DNA from: Gemmatimonadaceae bacterium
GTDB taxonomy: Bacteria; Gemmatimonadota; Gemmatimonadetes; Gemmatimonadales; Gemmatimonadaceae
Direction of reading: 5' to 3'
NCBI GenBank assembly: GCA_045803545.1
Contig: JBJMOW010000005.1
Coordinates: 352,001 to 416,000 of the forward strand
Length of the DNA stretch: 64,000 nt
Shown here: one piece after another, positions 12,829-56,670 of the stretch
How positions within the stretch are numbered: position 1 is the stretch's first letter
How the letters are laid out: each line of letters starts with the position of its first letter
Made by a program: the position numbers and the translations under genes
The notes under the pieces: model-generated
Database searches by the model: none
What the model saw: only the letters and a program-made list of their open reading frames with translations
Told to the model about the DNA's origin: nothing

Positions 12829-15405
12829 CTAGCTGCGCGGTCCCGCAATCCGTTCCAGGTCATCGAGCCCCGCGAGCACATCGCGGGGCTTTGATCCATC
12901 CGGCGGTCCCAGGATACCGGCAGCGTGGAGCTGATCGATTATACGCGCCGCACGACCGTAACCGACTTTCAGACGCCGCTGCAACAACGATGTCGATCCC
13001 TGCTGATGCTGGATCACAACCTCGGCTGCCTCGCGGAACAGTTTGTCGCGATCCGTATCATCAAGCGACTCGCCGTCGGTGCCGCCCGCTTCTTCCGCTT
13101 CCTTGCGACGGATCGTCTCGATGATGTCCGTCTCGCTCGGCACGTCGTCGACGATCAGACCCTGTGCCTCGTACAGTGCCTTGCGCTCGGCACGACGCAT
13201 CTCGTACCAGCCCATCAACCGCTCGGTGTCTTCGCTGGAGATGAACGCGCCCTGAAGACGCGACGGCTCCGACTTGCCCGGCGGAATGAACAACATGTCG
13301 CCGTTGCCGAGCAGCGCTTCGGCGCCGATGCCATCAAGGATGGTGCGCGAATCAACCTGCGACGCGACACGGAACGCGATGCGGCTCGGGAAGTTCGCCT
13401 TGATCAGACCGGTAATCACGTTCACGCTCGGACGCTGCGTCGCCAGAATGAGGTGGATGCCGATCGCGCGCGCTTTCTGCGCCAGCATCGCCAGCGGCGT
13501 CTCGATCTCTCCCTGCACCGTCATCATCAGGTCGGCGAGCTCGTCGATCACCACCACGATGTATGGGACGATGCCGCCCTTGTACTCCAGCTCCTCGAAC
13601 GCGACGTCCGCGCGCTTCACGTTCTTCAGCTTCTGTCCTTCCTGAACCTTGCGATTGAAATCCTGGATGTTGCGCGCACCGTTTGCGGCGAGCAGCTCGT
13701 AACGATCCTGCATCTCGAGCACCGCCCACTTCAAGACTGCTGCAGCATCGCGATTGTCGGTGACAACCTTGTGCCGCAGATGCGGGAGTACGTTATACAC
13801 CGACAGCTCCACCATCTTCGGATCGACCATCAGGAATCGCAGCGTTGTCGGCGTGTGACGATACGCGAGCGACGTGATCAGGGTGTTGATGCACACCGAC
13901 TTGCCCGACCCGGTCGCTCCGGCGATCAATAGGTGAGGCATCTTCGCCAGATCGGCGATTACCGGGCGGCCTTCGAGATCCTTGCCGAGCGCGATCGGCA
14001 GCGCGGCGCGCGCATTCTGAAAATCGCGCGACTCGATCAGCTCTCTGAACGCGACCATCTCGGGATTCGGATTTGGAACTTCAACGCCGACAGCTCCCTT
14101 CCCCGGTATCGGTGCGACGATGCGGATGCTCTGCGCGCGCATCGCCAAAGCGAGATCGTTGGAGAGATTGGCGATTTGCCGCACTTTCACACCCGCTGCC
14201 GGCGCAACCTCGAATTGCGTAACCACCGGACCCGTTGTCCGTCCGACGAGCTCGCCTTCCACGCGAAACGTCCGCAGCGCCTCCATCAGCTTCACACCCA
14301 TCGCGTCGAGCTCACGCTTGCCGATATCAACGTTCCGCGGCGGCGCCGGGGATAACAATTCCGGCGATGGCAGATCTTCATCGGAGAAAGCGAAGTTCTC
14401 CGTTGCCTCGAACGCATCGATCGCGGCGCCGATTGATTCCGCGGTTGTCTTGTTCCACTTCCCGCTTCCCGCTTCCCGCTTCCCGCCTGCCGCGTCCCGC
14501 TTCCCGCTCCCCGGCTCCCGTTTTTTCCTGATCGGCAGCACCGGATCCTCGCTCGACAGCGACTGCATCAGCGAATGATCGATCGCCGGCATCTCCTCCG
14601 GCTCCGGCTCGAGCAAAGTCGCCGAGACGACGCTCGCGGCGGCGTTCGCCGCGGGAACAACGATTTCTTTCGACGGATCGAGACCGGCGCGCTCGGCAGG
14701 CGTGGGTGCGGTCATCGAGTCGAGCGTGCGCACACGCTTCGCGACGACGACGCGGATCGGATTCCACGACAATGCGACAGCCGTGAGCGTGCACAACGCG
14801 ATCGCCAAGAGAATCCACCCGCCAACTACACCCGCAAACTGCAGGATGTAAAACGCCGCAAAATCACCCCATATACCCGCTAGCGGTCCCGCCTCGCGCG
14901 TCCCTCCTCCCGCCTCCCCAAATACAATCGGCAGCAGCACGACCATGCCCAGCAAAAACACCATCCACGAACGGTCTTTGCGCTCGCCAAGTCGGCCGAA
15001 CAGCCGCAGCGCATGCGCGATCAACGCCAGCGGCAGCAGTGCCGACGCGGGCCAACCAACGAGCAGAGCGATCGGACGCGCGAGCAGCGCGCCAATCCAC
15101 CCGAAATTCGCTTTGATGGTGCCGTGACCCTGCAGCTGGGCGTAGCCCTGCGCTGCCAGTGCCCCGGCGAGGAAAAGTCCGAAGAGAAGGAGGACGATGC
15201 CGCGGATCTCGCGCGCGAGCGCGGACGAGGACGGCTTATCGTGCCCGTTCGGGCCCGAGTTTCGTGATTTGTCGCTCCTGAAAGATCGGGACCACAGGAT
15301 GGGAGTCCACTTCCGCGGCGGCGGCGAGGTCGTCACCAAATCCTGCTTCCTGGAGCGCTTTCCCGTGGGCTGATTCTTTGAAGACTTTCGCGATGTTGTC
15401 GCCAT
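12829..15405 (-). CDS. ftsK: DNA translocase FtsK/SpoIIIE
   Basis: N-terminal TMs; PHLLIAGATGSGKS, IDELADLMM, ATQRPS; gamma domain STSLLQRRLKVGYGRAARI; start 15405, 15339 or 15336. Confidence 0.97.
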   Translation of the reverse strand: MATTSRKSSKNQPTGKRSRKQDLVTTSPPPRKWTPILWSRSFRSDKSRNSGPNGHDKPSSSALAREIRGIVLLLFGLFLAGALAAQGYAQLQGHGTIKANFGWIGALLARPIALLVGWPASALLPLALIAHALRLFGRLGERKDRSWMVFLLGMVVLLPIVFGEAGGGTREAGPLAGIWGDFAAFYILQFAGVVGGWILLAIALCTLTAVALSWNPIRVVVAKRVRTLDSMTAPTPAERAGLDPSKEIVVPAANAAASVVSATLLEPEPEEMPAIDHSLMQSLSSEDPVLPIRKKREPGSGKRDAAGGKREAGSGKWNKTTAESIGAAIDAFEATENFAFSDEDLPSPELLSPAPPRNVDIGKRELDAMGVKLMEALRTFRVEGELVGRTTGPVVTQFEVAPAAGVKVRQIANLSNDLALAMRAQSIRIVAPIPGKGAVGVEVPNPNPEMVAFRELIESRDFQNARAALPIALGKDLEGRPVIADLAKMPHLLIAGATGSGKSVCINTLITSLAYRHTPTTLRFLMVDPKMVELSVYNVLPHLRHKVVTDNRDAAAVLKWAVLEMQDRYELLAANGARNIQDFNRKVQEGQKLKNVKRADVAFEELEYKGGIVPYIVVVIDELADLMMTVQGEIETPLAMLAQKARAIGIHLILATQRPSVNVITGLIKANFPSRIAFRVASQVDSRTILDGIGAEALLGNGDMLFIPPGKSEPSRLQGAFISSEDTERLMGWYEMRRAERKALYEAQGLIVDDVPSETDIIETIRRKEAEEAGGTDGESLDDTDRDKLFREAAEVVIQHQQGSTSLLQRRLKVGYGRAARIIDQLHAAGILGPPDGSKPRDVLAGLDDLERIAGPRS
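14456..14518. repeat. Heptamer tandem array x9, in-frame in ftsK linker
   Basis: cgcttcc-type units; reads REPGSGKRDAAGGKREAGSGK. Confidence 0.88.
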
Positions 15406-15982: not shown

Positions 15983-17336
15983 TGGCCGGCTCCTTCATCA
16001 GCTCGCTCTCGCGCTCGAGGAATTTGGTATCCACTTGCCCCGCCTGGAATTTTTGATTTCCCATCACGCGCCCCAGGAAAGGAATCGTAGTGGTCACACC
16101 CTCGATGATGAAGCTCTCCAGCGCCACTTGCATCCGCGTGATGGCTTCTGCGCGATCGCGCCCCTGACAAATGAGCTTGGCGAGCAGGGAGTCGTAGAAT
16201 GGCGGAACTCTGTAGCCCGCGTAGACGTGCGTATCGAGGCGCACGCCCGGACCGCCCGGCGGATGGAAGACTTCGATTAAACCCGGCGACGGCTGAAAGT
16301 TGCGCGCCGGATCTTCGGCGTTCACGCGGCACTCGATGACGTGTCCGCGGCGCTCGATCGGCGGCTTCACCGACAGTTTCGTCCCGAACGCAACCTGAAT
16401 TTGCTCCTTCACCAGATCGATTCCTGTCAGCATCTCGGTTACCGGATGCTCGACCTGGATGCGGGTGTTCATTTCCATGAAGTAATACGATTTGTCTTCG
16501 TTGAGCAGCATTTCGATGGTGCCGGCGCCCACATAATCGATCGCTTTGGCGCCTTTCACCGCCGCCTCTCCCATCTTCTCCCGCAGCTCGGGGGTCATTG
16601 CCGGACTGGGCGCCTCTTCGATGAGTTTTTGATGTCGACGCTGTACCGAACAATCGCGCTCGCCGAGGTGAATGACGTTGCCGTGACGATCACCCATGAT
16701 CTGGAATTCGATATGGCGCGGGCGTGACAGATATTTCTCGACGTAGACATCGCCATTCCCGAACGCAGACAGCGCTTCCGACCGGGCGAGCTGGAACGAG
16801 CGCCCAAAATCTTCCGGGTCAGTGGCGACGCGCATTCCTTTTCCACCGCCGCCGGCGGCCGCCTTGATGATCACCGGGAACCCGATGTCCCGCGCAAACT
16901 TCAGCGCTTCGTCGGAATCCTCGATCGGGCCCGGCGTGCCCGGCACGATCGGCACGCCGACATCCTGCATCGTTTTGCGCGCCGCCGCCTTGTCACCCAT
17001 CACCCGAATCTGCTGCGGCGTCGGGCCGATGAACGCGAGATTGGACGCGATGCAGGTCTCGGCGAATTCGGCATTTTCAGCGAGAAAGCCGTAACCGGGA
17101 TGAATGGCGTCGGCGCCGGCGATTTCGGCGGCGGCGATGATGCGCGGAATGTTGAGATATGATTCGCGCGCCGGCGCTGGCCCGATGCACACGTCATCGT
17201 CGGCGAACCGAACGTGCAGCGACTCGCGGTCAGCCTCGGAATAGACCGCGACGGTCTGGATGCCGAGCTCGCGGCAGGCGCGGATCACTCGGAGCGCAAT
17301 CTCACCGCGGTTTGCGATCAGGATCTTTTTGAACAA
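15972..17336 (-). CDS. accC: Acetyl-CoA carboxylase biotin carboxylase
   Basis: [45 protein letters not shown]. Confidence 0.98.
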
Positions 17337-17432
17337 TAGGGTCGTCGGTTCGGACTACCAGCGCGGACCAGCTGAAACTTCGAGGCGTTACGGATTGCGA
17401 AACTTACTGCAGACCGCGGGCTAACTGCTAAA

Positions 17433-17570
17433 AAAGGTAGGCTGCATGCAGAGTAGCTCAGAAGCAGAGTTGGCAGCTACGTACTGGCCGTTGGAATCTT
17501 GCGAGTCTTCGAACGCCACGAACGTAGCTGCCAACTCATTTCTGAGCCGCTCTGCCGACTGCCTACCTTT
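17433..17570. repeat. Long imperfect hairpin, family B copy 1
   Basis: aaaggtaggc/gcctaccttt outer stem, 16-bp perfect inner stem; similar to 24702-24868. Confidence 0.8.
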
Positions 17571-17588
17571 GGTTCCGTTGTCCGCAGT

Positions 17589-18767
17589 TCAAGTCGCTTC
17601 CTGCTTGACCGTATCCCACGAAGTATCCGACGACGCCGAGATTCCCTGGGTGCGCAGCGAGAATTCCGCCGGATTGGTCGCGGCGAACAGCGCATCGTCG
17701 TACGTGATGACGCCCTTCTGGTACCAGTTCATCAGCGATTGGTCGAAGCTCTGCATGCCGTAAGGTACCGCGCCTTCCTTGATCAACTGCGGAATGCTCA
17801 TCGCCTTGCTCATATCCCGCATCTGATCGCGCACGGCTTCGGTGTTCACCAGAATCTCGGCGGCGGGCACGCGTCCCTTCTTGTCGGCGCGGCGCACCAG
17901 CCGGAGCGAGATGATCGCCCGCAACGCACTCGATAGCATGAAACGCACTTCGGCCTGCTGATGGGGCGGATAAAACGACAGAATTCGATTGATGGTCTGC
18001 GACGCGTCCGTCGTGTGCAGCGTCGAGAAAACCAGGTGACCGGTCTCTGCCGCTTTCAGCGCAATGTCGAGGGTCTCGAGGTCGCGAATTTCTCCGACCA
18101 GCAGCACGTCGGGGTCCTGCCGGAGCACGCGACGCAGCGCCTGGGCAAAGCTGTTGGTGTCCGTTCCAACTTCGCGCTGGTTGATGCTGCTCTTGATGTC
18201 GCGATGCAGGAACTCGATCGGATCTTCGATGGTGATGATGTTCGCCTGGCGCTGCTGATTGATGTAGTGCAGCATCGAGGCGAGCGCCGTCGACTTTCCG
18301 GAGCCGGTGATTCCCGTTACCAGGATCAAACCGCGTGGCATGAGAGCGATGCGCTCGCACGCCTCAGGCAGGTTCAGCTCCGCGATCGTCTTCGCCTGGA
18401 ACGGCACGCTGCGCATCGCATACGCGATGGTTCCGCGCTGTTGATACGCGTTGACGCGGAAACGACCGATGCCTGGGACCGCGAGAGCGAAGTCCGACTC
18501 CTTCTGCTCCGAGAACTCCTTGATGTTCTTGGGCGCCATTATCTGCTCGGCGAGGCTGCGCAGGTCTTCCTGCTTCAGCGCGGGCATATCGAGATTTATC
18601 ATCTGCCCATCGACGCGCAGTGTCGGCGGACGACCGACTTTGAGATGCAAGTCGGACGCGTTCGCCTGAATCATGTGTTGCAGCACGCCCTTGTAGTCGA
18701 AGGTGCCGCTGGAGTGAGGAGATGGGGCAGCCGTCTTGGGCGGCGGGGGACTCAGTTTTTCAGCCAT
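17589..18767 (-). CDS. pilT: PilT/PilU-family type IV pilus retraction ATPase
   Basis: ASDLHL, Walker A GITGSGKS, TIEDPIE, LRQDPD, AAETGHLVFSTLHT. Confidence 0.9.
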   Translation of the reverse strand: MAEKLSPPPPKTAAPSPHSSGTFDYKGVLQHMIQANASDLHLKVGRPPTLRVDGQMINLDMPALKQEDLRSLAEQIMAPKNIKEFSEQKESDFALAVPGIGRFRVNAYQQRGTIAYAMRSVPFQAKTIAELNLPEACERIALMPRGLILVTGITGSGKSTALASMLHYINQQRQANIITIEDPIEFLHRDIKSSINQREVGTDTNSFAQALRRVLRQDPDVLLVGEIRDLETLDIALKAAETGHLVFSTLHTTDASQTINRILSFYPPHQQAEVRFMLSSALRAIISLRLVRRADKKGRVPAAEILVNTEAVRDQMRDMSKAMSIPQLIKEGAVPYGMQSFDQSLMNWYQKGVITYDDALFAATNPAEFSLRTQGISASSDTSWDTVKQEAT

Positions 18768-22619: not shown

Positions 22620-22812
22620 CGCCTTTTGGTGCCTATCTTTCGCGAACTCCCGTTTCACGCTCAGTTGCGGAAGCGAGAAAGATGCATCATTCCGGTCTTT
22701 AGCGCGACTTGCATCTAACTCACTCAAACCCGTATCATACAAGGCTATACGCCTTTTCGCCCTCGCGCACCGAGGGGTTTTTCAAAACGAGTAGGGGGCC
22801 GAAGCCCAGTCC

Positions 22813-22842
22813 CGCTTCCCGCCTCCCTCCTCCCGCTTCCCG
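22813..22842. repeat. Heptamer array x4 upstream of surA/ppiD
   Basis: cgcttcc cgcctcc ctcctcc cgcttcc. Confidence 0.75.
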
Positions 22843-24689: not shown

Positions 24690-24701
24690 CTCCGTGACTG
24701 C

Positions 24702-24868
24702 GGACTGGAACTGAAAAAAAGGTAGGCAGTCGGCAGAAGCGCTGGGTGGAGTTAACAGCGTATGGTCGTAGTCGTATGGCGCTCGCCGCTACGAATGCCA
24801 CGAACGACGCTGCGAACTCCCAACTGCGCCACTCTGCTGACTCCCTACCTTTTTTTCCGTTCCAGTCC
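24702..24868. repeat. Long imperfect hairpin, family B copy 2 (may also terminate convergent genes)
   Basis: ggactggaac and aaaaaaaggtagg pair with cctaccttttttt and gttccagtcc. Confidence 0.8.
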
Positions 24869-24880
24869 TCAATCCTTCTG

Positions 24881-28847: not shown

Positions 28848-30164
28848 TTACCCGGTAGGCACAACCTCCGGGGGACGAGCGTTCAAATTAGTTACGCTTT
28901 CGTAGGGGTGACAAGGCGCGCCAGCCTTCCAACTCCCCACACAAAGACGTGCCCCGTACCAGTATGGCAACTCACGAACATCTGTGATCGAAAAGAGCGC
29001 CAGGTCGGCTGAAAACCCCGGTGCAATCTGGCCAATTTCCCCTGCAAGCCCGAGCGCCGCCGCGCCGTTGACCGTGCTGGCGATCAGCGCTTCACCCAAG
29101 CTCATGCGCAGCTGGCTGACGCCGAGAGTCATGATCAGCGGAAAATTGACGGTTGGAGATGTGCCAGGATTGAAATCGGTCGCCAAGGCGACGGCAGCGC
29201 CAGCATCGATCAGCTCGCGCGCAGGGCCCTGCTTCGACTTGCCCAGGAAAAGCATGGTTCCCGGCAGCAGCGTAGCCACGGTGTCGGACTTCGCGAGCGC
29301 AGCCATCCCCTGGTGTGAGACCGCCGCCAAATGATCAGCGGAAGTCGCCTTCAGTTCGACCGCTAGCTCGGCGCCTCCTGACGCCTTGAGCTCGTCGGCG
29401 TGGAGCTTGAGACCGAGACCCGCTTTCCGTGCAGCGCTGAGAATGCGACGCGTTTCATCGATGGTGAACACGCCCGGCTCGCAAAAGACATCGGCGAATC
29501 GCGCGACGCGCTGCTCAACAACTCGCGGCAACTGGACGTCGACGAGGGCATCGATGAATTTCTCCCGCTGCGACGCATCGGACCGATACTCGTGCGGAAT
29601 TTCGTGAGCGCCGAGCCAGGTGGCGACGATGCGGAGCGGCTGTCGCTCGGCGAGCCGGCCGATGACGGCGAGCGCTTTGAGCTCGTCGTCGGTGCTCAGT
29701 CCGTAACCGCTCTTGATCTCGACGGTGGTGGTGCCATACGACGCAAGCTCCCGCAGCCGCTGCACCGCCATCGCGTACAGCTCCTCTTCGGCGCGCGCGC
29801 GAAAATCGCGCACGGATGCGTGGATGCCGCCGCCGCGACTCGCGATCTCCATGTAGTCGAGCCCCGCCGCTCGCTGCTCGTGCTCCTCGAACCGCGCTTT
29901 GCCAAACACTGCGTGGGTGTGGGAGTCGACGAGCCCCGGCGTGAGCACGCCACCTTTGCAGTCGATGACCTCCGCATCAGCGTACGCGTTCTTGAGGTCC
30001 GATGCCGCGCCGATCATCGCGATGCGGCCGTTGCTGACGGCGACAGCCGCGTTCTTGAGGATGCCGATTTCTTTCATTTCGGATCCGTGGCGGGCGCGCG
30101 CGGGACCGGCGCAGGTTATGAGCTGGGACGAGTTGATGAAGAGGAGGGGGCGTTCGGGCATCAC
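28848..30164 (-). CDS. hutI: Imidazolonepropionase
   Basis: PGLVDSHTH, GGGI..SV, EIKSGYGL, LHADEL, ATDFNPG. Confidence 0.96.
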   Translation of the reverse strand: MMPERPLLFINSSQLITCAGPARARHGSEMKEIGILKNAAVAVSNGRIAMIGAASDLKNAYADAEVIDCKGGVLTPGLVDSHTHAVFGKARFEEHEQRAAGLDYMEIASRGGGIHASVRDFRARAEEELYAMAVQRLRELASYGTTTVEIKSGYGLSTDDELKALAVIGRLAERQPLRIVATWLGAHEIPHEYRSDASQREKFIDALVDVQLPRVVEQRVARFADVFCEPGVFTIDETRRILSAARKAGLGLKLHADELKASGGAELAVELKATSADHLAAVSHQGMAALAKSDTVATLLPGTMLFLGKSKQGPARELIDAGAAVALATDFNPGTSPTVNFPLIMTLGVSQLRMSLGEALIASTVNGAAALGLAGEIGQIAPGFSADLALFSITDVRELPYWYGARLCVGSWKAGAPCHPYESVTNLNARPPEVVPTG

Positions 30165-30188
30165 CGTAAAGTACTGCGCACCGAGGAC

Positions 30189-30772
30189 AACGGCGCACTG
30201 CCTCGCTGAGCGCTTATCGCTGCACGCTTACCGCTGAGCGCTGCAAGCGACGGGACAGATTGCGAGTAAACCAAACAAACCCGCCTGACAGGAAACGATG
30301 TCTTGATCACGCTAAGACCGAGCAACCTCAGTCATGGCCGATCACAAGAAACTGCGAGTCTGGCGCATGGCCTACGCTCTAGCGCTGAACGCTGATCGCG
30401 TCGCTACCGAGATCCGAAATCCGGATCATAAAGCGTTACGCAGTCAGTTGAACCGCGCTGCGATGTCCATTTCGGCAAATATTGTCGAGGGAAGAGCAAA
30501 AAAGAGCGATCGGGATTTCGCACGCTTTCTCGGATACGCGCTTGGCTCCGCCGCGGAGCTAGAGCACCACACAATGATTGCGCGAGACGTCAAGGCGATT
30601 TCTGTAAGTGATTCTTCTGTCCTTCTCGCTGAGGTCGTGGAGGTTAAAAAGATGCTCCATGGTCTAATCAATCGACTCTCGGGGTGAGTAGCCCACTGCG
30701 ATTTGTCCCGTCGCTTGCAGCGCTCAGCGGTAAGCGTGCAGCGATAAGCGCTCAGCGAGGCAGTGCGCCGTT
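30189..30772. mobile_element. Candidate IVS-like cassette: four-helix-bundle gene within perfect 69-bp inverted repeats
   Basis: 30189-30257 is the exact reverse complement of 30704-30772; each arm has six CGCT-heptamers; mobility is inferred, no transposase or TSD seen. Confidence 0.65.
30334..30687 (+). CDS. Four helix bundle protein (23S rRNA IVS protein family)
   Basis: KLRVW, LRSQLNRAAMSISANIVEG, DFARFLGYALGSAAELE, KMLHGLI. Confidence 0.92.
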   Translation: MADHKKLRVWRMAYALALNADRVATEIRNPDHKALRSQLNRAAMSISANIVEGRAKKSDRDFARFLGYALGSAAELEHHTMIARDVKAISVSDSSVLLAEVVEVKKMLHGLINRLSG

Positions 30773-31767
30773 CAGTTCGCAGTCCGAGTAGTCGGCGAAG
30801 CTAGCACGTCCCTCACCCGCGACATCTGCAGCGGCGCCTGCGCCTCCCCCCGGCAAGCGTAGTAGCACGCATTACAGTTTATTGGCTGGTACTTCCGAAA
30901 CTCCGTCCAATGAAAGTCCGGCGGAAAATCCGGGCAGCGCTTCACATTGCCGAGCGGATCGATGTGAATCGTCCGCATTCCCGAGCGGCATGGCTCCTTC
31001 ATCTCGCCGCGCACGTAGCGAGGAATCTGGGCCAGGTAGTAGTCGGAGTTAGTGATGACGCCGCGCGTTTTTTTCTTGAATGCGAGCAACTCGGCGACGA
31101 CTTCCTCGAGCTGCTTCGTCTGATCTGACTCGAGCAGGCCTTCCTTGTTGCCGTTCTTGGCGTCGGTGTAGCAGCTGAAGTTCACGCCGCAACCCAGCTC
31201 GCGCGCGCGCAGCACGATCGGCATCAGCTGGTCGAGATTGTCGCGCTTGATCACGGTGTTGACCCGAATGCCGGTGATGCCGATGGCGCGCATGCGTGGA
31301 ATTACGTTCTGGATGCGCTGGGCTAAGCCAGGTATGCCACGGGCGTGATCGTGGCGCTCGTCGAGAAAGTCGAGCGAGATGTTGAACTGATTGACTCCTG
31401 CCTGCCACAGCGATCGGGCGCGCTCCGGAGTCAGCATCCCGCCGTGAGTAATCAGCATGATGTACTTCAATCGCACCGCGCCCTTTACCGCGGCAACGAG
31501 ATCTTCAAGATCGCGACGCAGCGTCGGCTCGCCACCGGTGAAAGTGATCAGCGCTGGGTTGAAGTAGCGCGCGGCGTCGGCGAACGACTTGACCTCAGTC
31601 GCTTTGGCTGACGGATCGGTTTTCCAGTAGTCGCAAAAACCACAACGGGCGTTGCAGCGCATGGTGACTTCGAAATGCACCAGCACCGGTCGTCCAATGG
31701 TGGTGAGCCAGGCATACTTGCCGATGAATAGCGGGATGTGCCATGGCTTGAACTCGGCGGAAAGCAT
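30772..31767 (-). CDS. Radical SAM protein with SPASM/twitch-like C-terminal Cys cluster
   Basis: CNARCGFC, FTGGEP, C-terminal CRSG...IDPLGNVKRC...CNACYYAC. Confidence 0.92.
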   Translation of the reverse strand: MLSAEFKPWHIPLFIGKYAWLTTIGRPVLVHFEVTMRCNARCGFCDYWKTDPSAKATEVKSFADAARYFNPALITFTGGEPTLRRDLEDLVAAVKGAVRLKYIMLITHGGMLTPERARSLWQAGVNQFNISLDFLDERHDHARGIPGLAQRIQNVIPRMRAIGITGIRVNTVIKRDNLDQLMPIVLRARELGCGVNFSCYTDAKNGNKEGLLESDQTKQLEEVVAELLAFKKKTRGVITNSDYYLAQIPRYVRGEMKEPCRSGMRTIHIDPLGNVKRCPDFPPDFHWTEFRKYQPINCNACYYACRGEAQAPLQMSRVRDVLASPTTRTAN

Positions 31768-31769
31768 CT

Positions 31770-31813
31770 GCGGGAAGCGGGAAGCGGGAAGCGGGAGGCG
31801 GGAAGCGGGAAGC
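31770..31813. repeat. Heptamer array (GCGGGAA) x6 filling the hutU-radical SAM spacer
   Basis: gcgggaa x3, gcgggag, gcgggaa x2. Confidence 0.92.
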
Positions 31814-35037: not shown

Positions 35038-36068
35038 GCGCGGCGAGCCGGAGGCGGGAGTGGGGACCCGGGAGGGGGGAGGCGGGAGGCGTTGCGAACA
35101 AGCCTTCGACCATCAGGATTCCAGCGCCACTCCGCCGGCGGGACAATCTCGACGCCTCCGAGCCAGCGCGATTCGGTGTTGATGCTCTGCCAATCTTTTT
35201 TGCCGGCGAGCACGTCGCGACCAAGCGAAGTGAGCGTGAGCTCTCCCTTCACGAAGTCGCGCGATTCGGCAGGTGTGGGAGCAGTCACCGGTGTCCCATC
35301 GCGCCAGGTTACGAGCGGATTGTCTCTTCCACTCAGTCGTTCGAGATAGGAGAAGAAGACGAGGTCGCCGAGGAAAATGCTTTCCTGTTTCTTCGCCACT
35401 TCCAGGAACGCCGCGACAGGAGTGTTATGTCCCTCGCTGATTGCGGTGAGAGCTTCTTGCTCGGAGCGCGAAAGTCCATTCACCGTTGACGGAAATTCCT
35501 CGAGATGTCGCATCAAAGCGCGCGAGAGATAAGGCAATGCCGACGTAGGTTCCTGCAGTAGTCGTTCGATGCGCGTCGGATCGGTCGAGCCAAAATCGCT
35601 CCACGCGCGCTTGGCGAGTGCGAGCTGTTCGGAAGTGACGGCCGGCCGCGCTTCATCGAGCTGCCGCAGCTCCTCCGCTGTCAGCGGTGGAATGTAGCCA
35701 TCGACGACGATGAGTGAGAGTCGCTTCGACCCCGCTGTCCCGGTACTGAAAAAGTCGAGCAGCTGGATCAGCTGCAGCTGATCGTAGAGGTCGTCCTCGA
35801 ACCAGAGAACCACTTCCTCGAAATAATCGAGGTGCTGGATCATCCGATCGCGCTCGACGAAATCGCCGCTGACGTGTGAGAACTCGGCCCAATTGTTACC
35901 GGCGATGAAGCGCGCCCGCTGCTTGCTCAGCTCCTCGAGCGGAAGCGACGAGTCGACCGGACCTTCGTGCAGCACATCCCGCCACGCAATGATCTTCCCC
36001 TCTATGCCAGCGTCGCTGAGGCTGCCGGCGGCAGAATCGCCGTTGGTGATGTTGAGCCGACGAGTCAA
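35034..36068 (-). CDS. DUF1835-like protein
   Basis: LNITNGDSA, WRDVLHEGPV, LWFEDDLYDQLQL, RWLGGV. Confidence 0.75.
   Translation of the reverse strand: MTRRLNITNGDSAAGSLSDAGIEGKIIAWRDVLHEGPVDSSLPLEELSKQRARFIAGNNWAEFSHVSGDFVERDRMIQHLDYFEEVVLWFEDDLYDQLQLIQLLDFFSTGTAGSKRLSLIVVDGYIPPLTAEELRQLDEARPAVTSEQLALAKRAWSDFGSTDPTRIERLLQEPTSALPYLSRALMRHLEEFPSTVNGLSRSEQEALTAISEGHNTPVAAFLEVAKKQESIFLGDLVFFSYLERLSGRDNPLVTWRDGTPVTAPTPAESRDFVKGELTLTSLGRDVLAGKKDWQSINTESRWLGGVEIVPPAEWRWNPDGRRLVRNASRLPPPGSPLPPPARRA
35050..35091. repeat. Degenerate heptamer array (GGAGGCG) x6 in the DUF1835 gene tail
   Basis: ggaggcg ggagtgg ggacccg ggagggg ggaggcg ggaggcg; reads SRLPPPGSPLPPP. Confidence 0.7.
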
Positions 36069-39839: not shown

Positions 39840-39845
39840 CGCCAC

Positions 39846-39876
39846 CGCCTCCCGCCTCCCACTTCCCGCTTCCCGC
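39846..39876. repeat. Heptamer array x4 between cpoB and tatC
   Basis: cgcctcc cgcctcc cacttcc cgcttcc; gives GGAGG 8 nt before ATG 39839 on minus strand. Confidence 0.85.
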
Positions 39877-40709
39877 TATTTAATCGACTGTAAACGCTCA
39901 TCGGCGAGGGCTGCCTCGTCGGAGCGTGGATAACGCTTGATGATGTCCTGGAATATCCGCTTCGCTTCAGCGGTTTTCTTTTGCGCCTGCAGAGACAGCG
40001 CGCGTTTGTACATCGCGGTCGGCACGCGCGGTGAGTTGGGATACTTCTGGATCAACGATGCGTATTCCGCGTCGGCTGCATCGCTGTTTCGCTCAGCTGC
40101 ATACGCCTGCGCCGTATAAAACATCGCGTCGGGCACCAAGTCGGACCTGGGGTATTTCTGAATCAGCTCGGCGAACGCTGCGCGCGCGGACGTGTTGCCA
40201 CCCTTGAGCAGCTGATCGCGGCCCGCCTGTAAGAGTTGCGCGGGACCCGGTCCCCCGGCAGTCGGCTCCGCGGCACTGACTGGAGAAGTGTCTGCGCTCG
40301 TTGGCGCCGGCTGCGTGGTTTTATCCTCGATCTGAGCGCGCATGTCGCGAAGGCGCTGCTCGCTCTGACCACTGAGATCCTGCAGCTGCTGGATGTCTTC
40401 CTTCATTGCGGCCAGGTCAGACTCGCTCGCCGTCTTCATGGCATTGACGCGCCTGCTCAGCGCATTGACCGAATCGGTCAGTGTACGCATGCTGCGCGTA
40501 ACTTCGATCAGATACGCGCGCTGCACGGAATCGGCGGCGGTGGTGCTGGCGCGGGTGCCAACGAGGTCCTGCTGTAACTGGCTGACGTCGGACTTCGTGG
40601 CAAAAAAGCACGCAGCGTTCAGGAGAGGAACACCGAGAACGACCACCCTGCATTTGAAAACCTTCGTCGGGTGGGAAAAGATCCCACTGCGCAAGAATTG
40701 TCTGGTCAT
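39876..40709 (-). CDS. cpoB: Tol-Pal-associated CpoB/YbgF-like protein
   Basis: Coiled-coil N-terminus, TPRs with YP.S motifs; directly follows tolB; possible lipobox LNAA-C. Confidence 0.82.
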   Translation of the reverse strand: MTRQFLRSGIFSHPTKVFKCRVVVLGVPLLNAACFFATKSDVSQLQQDLVGTRASTTAADSVQRAYLIEVTRSMRTLTDSVNALSRRVNAMKTASESDLAAMKEDIQQLQDLSGQSEQRLRDMRAQIEDKTTQPAPTSADTSPVSAAEPTAGGPGPAQLLQAGRDQLLKGGNTSARAAFAELIQKYPRSDLVPDAMFYTAQAYAAERNSDAADAEYASLIQKYPNSPRVPTAMYKRALSLQAQKKTAEAKRIFQDIIKRYPRSDEAALADERLQSIK

Positions 40710-48851: not shown

Positions 48852-48980
48852 TCGTGCTCCGGGACTTAACGGATTGACATTGGCCCGCTTAGGGCGGGTC
48901 AGTCATTGGACGGCCGTAGTTGGGGGAAAGTCACTCTCGGTGACTCGGCGTATGGAGCCGTGTGCCTGGCTGACATCCAG

Positions 48981-49149
48981 AATACAAAAGCCCGGAGCTT
49001 CCAGCTTTGGGAGCTGCTAAGCGCCGGGCTCGGTTTTGATTTGTCCTGCCCGCGAACCCGGATGAAAGCGCGCTTCCAACCGTGCTGGGCGCTAACTAGC
49101 TCCCTAAGCTGGGAGCTCCCGGCTTCTGTATTGTACGCGCCAGTCGAAG
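48981..49149. repeat. Long hairpin element, family C copy 1 (downstream of ssb)
   Basis: Imperfect IR 48981-49132 plus cagtcgaag; similar to 56503-56670. Confidence 0.82.
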
Positions 49150-56502: not shown

Positions 56503-56670
56503 AAACTAAAGCCGGGAGCTACCAGTTTGGGAGCAGCTTAGCGCCGAGCCCAATTTGATTTCTTTTTCTGGGCGAAGATCTAGATGTGAGCGTGCTTTCA
56601 ACCAAGCTGGGCGCTAAACAGCTCCCAAGCTGGGAGCTCCGGGCTTTGGTTTACTGGATGGCAGTCGAAG
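56503..56670. repeat. Long hairpin element, family C copy 2 (downstream of secA)
   Basis: Imperfect IR 56503-56652 plus cagtcgaag. Confidence 0.82.

Follow-up and report, generated by a model that had tools for sequence, protein, structure and literature searches.

The four-helix-bundle gene in the hut operon of the window, the whole 64,000-nucleotide stretch of DNA analysed here, sits in a single member of a genome-wide family of hairpins. One gene per arm family, grouping of the copies by genome, flips, relocation of the gene and purifying selection on it emerge from comparison of genomes and are best read as the work of hairpin copies that likely overwrite each other via their inverted arms and of a ring-forming protein that likely binds the 7-base units of these arms and sustains the family. 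We give this reading about an even chance of being correct. The original prediction for the locus described a caged cassette and overlooked that its arms belong to a family found across the genome, whose copies appear to be replaced at their sites. In the following, G000 designates the genome carrying the window's cassette, other G numbers designate compared genomes, and C2, C4, etc. are G000 contigs.

The gene-bearing hairpin of the hut operon

The perfect 69-bp inverted repeat predicted for the locus was recovered, with its two arms being exact reverse complements at 69/69 positions (Table 1). The six tandem heptamers proposed for each arm are also present; in the left arm they lie at 30204-30245 and read CGCTnnn, and the arm matches itself at 62% of positions at period 7 vs 12-30% at periods 3-6 and 8-12. 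GACAGAT forms the end of the cassette arms. Pairing had been suggested to continue for about 7 bp inward with G-U-compatible mismatches, and all three mismatches among the 7 bases just inside the perfect arms are indeed G-U on the + strand. Folding of the cassette region yields a 76-bp stem with z = -12.5 vs 20 shuffles. While the perfect arms stood, the element as a whole turned out to be larger than they are, and the stop codon of the radical SAM (rSAM) gene, which the right arm had been thought to abut, lies inside the outer arm.

Table 1. Features of the gene-bearing hairpin and its hosts (positions in the window)
Feature	Position	Strand	Basis or remark
Whole gene-bearing hairpin element	~30167..30796	.	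Family HMM projection; outer limits +/-10 nt or so
Left outer segment, degenerate GGACTG-type, site-specific	30171..30188	+	Arm-end comparison
Left arm, perfect part, with six CGCTnnn heptamers	30189..30257	+	Exact inverted match
Leader of four-helix-bundle gene	30258..30333	+	Weak small stem ahead of start codon
Four-helix-bundle gene, 117 aa	30334..30687	+	TIGR02436 / PF05635; fold of Xcc0516, BT_0352, Avd
Right arm, perfect part	30704..30772	-	Exact inverted match
Right outer segment; gives radical SAM gene its last codons and TGA	30773..30790	-	
Host radical SAM gene, upstream in hut operon	30772..31767	-	Profile matches
Host hutI, imidazolonepropionase, downstream	28848..30164	-	Profile match

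As predicted, the gene is antisense to its hosts, running opposite to hutU-rSAM-hutI. In 8 cognate cassettes, the start codon follows the inner arm after 83-88 nt. The leader stem is weak, with double changes in 2/11 pairs, a promoter scan of the leader gave no match to the sigma-70 consensus, and the cassette has no Rfam match. Reads of the RNA runs X10 and X11 do not extend over the element. The rSAM gene, which has no assigned function, lies between hutU and hutI across the whole genus and is absent there in other sampled families. An assembly artefact, named beforehand as a possible source of the perfect repeat, is unlikely because contigs of run X1, which may derive from the source sample, end 30 nt into each cassette arm, as a genuine repeat would make them do, and because G014 and G060 carry the same cassette with other arm sequences that still match themselves at 64/66 and 63/64 positions (hand count). 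Near-perfect arms are confined to the three cassettes at the hut site, the arms of the remaining cognate cassettes being ~83-92% alike.

The protein matches TIGR02436 (E 8.6e-28, 96.7 bits vs a cut-off of 24) and PF05635 (95.4 bits vs 33.8). Its predicted model (pLDDT 94.8) has four helices and superimposes on Xcc0516 (2GSC) and BT_0352 (2RLD) with TM scores of 0.82-0.88, 2GSC alone giving 0.88. Against Avd (PDB 4DWL, 8UB7) the TM score is 0.77-0.82 at 12-16% identity, in agreement with the fold that had been suggested to unite S23p proteins and Avd; the PHROG Avd match is weak (E 0.057). As 2GSC and 2RLD comprise five chains each, we infer that the protein would form a homopentamer like Xcc0516 and Avd. 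It is all-helical and has no invariant tyrosine. In the cognate gene, pN is 0.04-0.24 vs a pS of 0.54-0.91, with pS of the host rSAM and hutI genes at ~0.5; by these values the gene is under purifying selection. To our knowledge, structures of the S23p/four-helix-bundle family have been solved and its function is not known, and we know of no established origin for the abundant heptamer repeats of many bacteria.

A family of hairpins and its variation between genomes

The arms are not unique to a one-off cassette. An iterated profile search of the whole G000 genome detected 61 arms, which represent 29 inverted pairs and 3 singles. The pairs comprise 27 ORF-less hairpins of ~235 nt with a conserved ~55-nt loop, one mini-form and one cassette, so that the gene is present in 1/29 hairpins and the other 28 are without an ORF. 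Arms are about 90-100 nt long and built of 7-nt-periodic units. With gene-pair orientations taken from a simple custom gene caller, 15/29 hairpins lie between convergent genes, while 11 of the others separate co-directional genes and 3 divergent ones; the convergent share exceeds the background of 496/3429 gene pairs (p 2.6e-6). In 34/41 arms facing the 3' end of a gene, a stop codon falls within the outer 24 nt (hand count).

G000 has eight four-helix-bundle loci, each with inverted arms of its own sequence family and 2-34 gene-less pairs. Seven of these arm pairs were recovered as a single long pair and the eighth just as a 29-bp match. The paralogue at C6:61404 is frameshifted, yet 6 pairs of its arm family remain. 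Throughout the genus, inverted repeats flank the paralogues, as the original prediction had asked: arms were found at 27/27 four-helix-bundle loci with enough flank (30 minus 3 dropped at contig ends), whereas only 3/150 size-matched control genes had them, and all three are paralogues. Across eight aligned cassettes, the arms show an invariant GC every 7 nt with variable bases between, a pattern expected of a putative multi-subunit binding site. Cassette arms are most like the short copies of their own genome, and the eight independent families of G000 occupy each other's sites. In the short copies, the two arms show no private covariation (0.78 own vs 0.76-0.78 cross), and inspection of the 61 arm ends by eye revealed no constant GTAG-type tag. 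A descent of the short loop from the leader of the gene is not supported overall: 1/4 leaders beat shuffles (1/100) and the other three did not.

Several related elements lie within the window. Gene-less copies at 17507-17579 and 24696-24874 belong to the arm family of paralogue C5:27124, and G121 carries a four-helix-bundle cassette at a site near 17300-17640; gene-less copies at 48970-49104 and 56583-56664 belong to that of the frameshifted C6:61404. Heptamer arrays of the GCGGGAA type, of which G000 has 82 in all (13 paired, most of the rest single arms), occur at 1009-1048, 14458-14520, 22810-22842, 31770-31813, 35050-35091 and 39845-39877. At C4:669609 a short pair of this type is present in G000 and a four-helix-bundle cassette with such arms in G014. 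An ORF-less element of another, non-heptamer kind occupies 2539-2901; its 117-nt arms are 87% complementary and enclose a loop of 129 nt. Elsewhere in G000, inverted arms surround unrelated passenger genes in composite forms at C4:1137708-1138414 and C2:39095-40002 (a small membrane protein and a 150-aa protein). At C4:1328303, relatives are too rearranged to define the element ends.

Site-by-site comparison of two genomes, G000 and G014, covered 26 G014 copies (29 loci minus 3 duplicates). Of these, 19 are at G000 sites, 17 of them placed by both flanks and 2 by a single flank. Another 4 correspond to empty G000 sites, 1 to a site where half an element is left in G000, and 2 could be placed nowhere; a further G014 copy leads to a fifth site empty in G000. 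Most flanks of shared sites are ~80-85% alike, whereas the elements themselves have an identity of 0.73 vs 0.70 for unrelated sites. For 52/53 copies the nearest neighbour comes from their own genome; the counterpart at the same site never ranks first, its rank being 3-23 of 27. The copy tree needs 2 changes of genome vs 17.8 when shuffled. Within-genome identity is 0.83 in G014 and 0.72 in G000, vs 0.73 for same-site copies; the grouping thus owes most to a sweep in G014. Loops are flipped at 8/19 shared sites, compatible with random orientation, and any single case in these short-read assemblies could be a mis-join across the repeat. The core changes, whereas the outermost 20-30 nt, together with any attached terminator, are retained at each site. 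At C2:1175400, C4:718499, C4:1178955, C4:1248562 and C5:236880, an intrinsic terminator takes the place of one arm's outer segment; such terminators are found at the same site in different genomes, next to cores that have been replaced.

The hut junction itself was surveyed in 24 genomes having both flanking genes (11/30 initial loci were without one and were dropped). The junction is occupied by this cassette in three genomes and by a hairpin without an ORF in 6; one genome has a lone arm there, another a GxxExxY gene flanked by its own arms, and 4 have a short arm-less spacer. The remaining 9/24 junctions are near-empty; aligning orthologous hut loci therefore revealed the empty alleles expected of a small dispensable element. 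The three cassette genomes form one clade (support 100/98) whose sister has a short hairpin, so the cassette gene likely arrived once, at a site that was already occupied. The GxxExxY (TIGR04256) gene, found in G018 (L018:983-1405) with 9-mer inverted arms, represents a second orphan family with the same layout and the same sites; G000 has no GxxExxY gene. G005, a single case, lacks both the cognate gene and an arm at the hut site. The hut-site interiors of G002 and G012 match at 130/145 positions only when one is flipped, and in one contig of run X3, from a related strain, the cassette loop is read inverted, possibly through a mis-join across the repeat.

The cognate gene (at least 66% identity) is present as one copy in each of 12/12 genomes, a minimum count given that the relatives are 62-93% complete. 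It is found at the hut site in three genomes, at C2:201916 in four (two each way), at C2:1175400 in three and at a G000-empty site in one, and is unplaced in the last, giving at least four sites overall. In G000, C2:201916 and C2:1175400 are short gene-less hairpins, although the gene is there in 7/12 genomes; conversely, G114 and G115 have a short hairpin at the hut site. This alternation of short hairpin and gene at the hut and other sites amounts to a reciprocal exchange. The unpublished genomes G050-G054, G117 and G118 are counted in the 12-genome single-copy tally and the 109-genome RNase III tally given below, and supply 2 of the 27 armed loci and one cassette among the 15 that underlie the mismatch count of 36/29 below; the site-by-site and relocation results are independent of them.

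Explanations for the spread of the hairpins

If hairpin copies overwrite each other, a break or gap in one hairpin would be repaired from another copy. The inverted arms would let the donor pair either way round, which would lead to flips. A gene-bearing donor would turn a short copy into a cassette, a short donor would do the reverse, and repair between the two arms of a cassette would keep them near-perfect. The simplest role for the protein would be to bind its own arms as a ring. The pentamer would read the GC-every-7-nt pattern on single-stranded arms, one unit per subunit, and would serve as the specificity factor of the family, in the place that RAYT holds for REPINs, with cutting and strand exchange supplied by host enzymes. 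Such a ring protein would have a likeness in TRAP or Hfq, and SbcCD would be a candidate for cutting the hairpins; the search for SbcD gave one sub-threshold match, so a host hairpin nuclease is no more than a possibility. Under neutral conversion from 28 short donors a lone gene would soon be erased, so its persistence implies selection. Several observations count against the overwriting reading. The grouping by genome reflects mostly the G014 sweep, identity among copies is just 70-90%, a low value for RecA, and the frameshifted paralogue still has its 6 pairs. Nor would recombination between copies account for the seeding of new sites, five G014 sites being empty in G000. The same pattern could arise purely by gene conversion of the host, the protein being a mere bystander, and the protein may promote copying, shield the cell from hairpins or regulate adjoining mRNAs. 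A bolder version, which we regard tentatively as possible, is a transposase-free intragenomic replicator in which each Avd-fold ring protein would read its own 7-nt-periodic hairpin family as single-stranded DNA and drive copy-and-overwrite, its own gene included. If true, this would provide a function for the S23p/IVP family and an origin for orphan bacterial heptamer repeats, and rRNA intervening sequences (IVSs) would be copies that landed in rRNA.

Among the alternatives, domesticated regulation survives best, though we consider it rather doubtful. It holds that the hairpins have a role at the 3' ends of mRNAs (in stability, convergent-gene insulation or termination), that the protein is their RNA-binding regulator, and that ordinary gene conversion by the host produces homogenisation, flips and gene moves as side effects. 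The stop codons in the outer arms and the excess of convergent genes fit this explanation, as do the retention of most sites between genomes ~80-85% alike and the binding of structured RNA by Avd, as described in 10.1101/2023.10.23.563531. In G014, moreover, there are 86 G-U vs 51 A-C mismatches, and one strand folds better in 37/53 copies. The bias is not general, since the G000 short copies have 75/76, and the cassettes 36/29 (15 cognate cassettes) and 67/54; the mismatches thus suggest no overall selection for a one-strand RNA duplex, with G014 leaning mildly otherwise. Long stems may also be tolerated in a host without RNase III. This enzyme was not found in G000, in any of 109 genus genomes or in any of 134 genomes of families f1-f8 of the phylum, and PF00636 gave 0/5; it was detected in 15 genomes of other families and in 8-9/14 controls. 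The entire lineage (genus g1; families f1-f8), single-contig genomes included, thus seems to lack RNase III, and we found nothing in the literature on its loss in this group. Regulation leaves other features poorly explained: eight independent families using each other's sites look selfish, as does the GxxExxY cassette at the G018 hut site, orientation is free, and the genes adjoining the hairpins have no obvious common function.

Classical MITEs, moved in trans by a DDE or RAYT-like HUH transposase and carrying the gene as passive cargo, would account for inverted arms, for filled and empty alleles and for the other cargo between arms of other families. We nevertheless consider them improbable. 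The transposase search, which was for Y1/RAYT, found no PF01797 in G000 (93% complete). The inner core is the part that changes, and the bases at the extreme ends are specific to the site, the reverse of what MITE ends do; the gene, moreover, is tied to arms at all 27 genus loci. Comparison with four empty sites showed no target duplication, though there the flanks, ~80% alike, are too diverged to recognise 2-4 nt.

An IVS-like stem in hut mRNA, with the ORF looped out and the duplex cleaved by a double-strand nuclease such as RNase III, is very improbable. The long stem and its folding score agree with it, folding would put the rSAM stop ~25 nt from the hutI start, and the Coxiella IVS, described as cut by RNase III, has the same layout with GACAGAT heptamers (PMC4990558). 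The RNase III cleavage invoked in the original prediction, however, finds no enzyme in G000, the 109 genus genomes or the 134 of families f1-f8, the host mRNA contains the ORF in antisense orientation, and the gene-less family and the flips are left unexplained. Least probable of all is DGR-like RNA-templated homing, in which the Avd-like protein and a reverse transcriptase would copy element RNA into other copies: the Avd fold and the in-place overwriting are compatible with it, whereas no RVT_1 was found in G000 and positions with A in the consensus do not vary more than those with T (0.24 vs 0.25, 0.14 vs 0.17).

Relation to known repeat systems

The 23S rRNA IVS of Coxiella burnetii resembles the cassette in that an S23p family protein lies in the loop of a heptamer-bearing stem (PMC4990558). 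The cassette differs in lying between rSAM and hutI, outside rRNA and antisense to the host transcript, in a host without RNase III and with a gene-less daughter family; its gene is under purifying selection, whereas the Coxiella gene is described as decaying (PMC4990558). Avd of DGRs, whose solved relatives are reported as pentameric (10.1101/2023.10.23.563531), shares the fold with our protein at the low identity given above, and here there is no reverse transcriptase, template/variable repeat pair or adenine bias.

Orphan intergenic heptamer repeats have been described in Xanthomonas and Nostoc (PMC4692102), Beggiatoaceae (PMC4679880) and Geobacter (PMC2700814). Like the arms studied here, they consist of 7-nt units by stop codons, partly as inverted pairs, and can supply stop codons. 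In the available parts of these three papers in-place replacement is not described. The term 'four helix' is absent from the main texts of PMC4692102 and PMC4679880, and 'S23' from those of PMC4679880 and PMC2700814; their supplements may list such genes beside repeats. We found no paper on the gene-plus-hairpin class in a literature search that covered subscription journals thinly.

The closest parallel is REPIN-RAYT. REPINs are described as repeat groups each with one single-copy gene (PMC3337134), and at conserved sites they appear overwritten (10.1101/2024.10.14.618302). In both systems, many extragenic inverted doublets form hairpins (29 pairs here), several groups coexist per genome, each with a single-copy gene under purifying selection that is flanked by its own repeat, and repeats at conserved sites are seemingly overwritten. 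The gene here, in contrast, encodes a four-helix bundle without an HUH/Y1 domain, no Y1 transposase was found in G000, and the ~90-100-nt arms of 7-nt-periodic units replace short REP palindromes. The gene also lies inside one element and changes site, whereas RAYTs are described as non-transposing. The cassette system works like REPIN-RAYT but is no member of it, as the HUH transposase is missing. The locus ties the S23p/four-helix-bundle family to heptamer repeats in a REPIN/RAYT-like partnership in which no transposase was found, within a large bacterial lineage that seemingly lacks RNase III and carries ~100 long hairpins behind stop codons. With eight matched protein-repeat pairs in one genome and site-by-site overwriting, specificity and mechanism of this partnership become directly testable.
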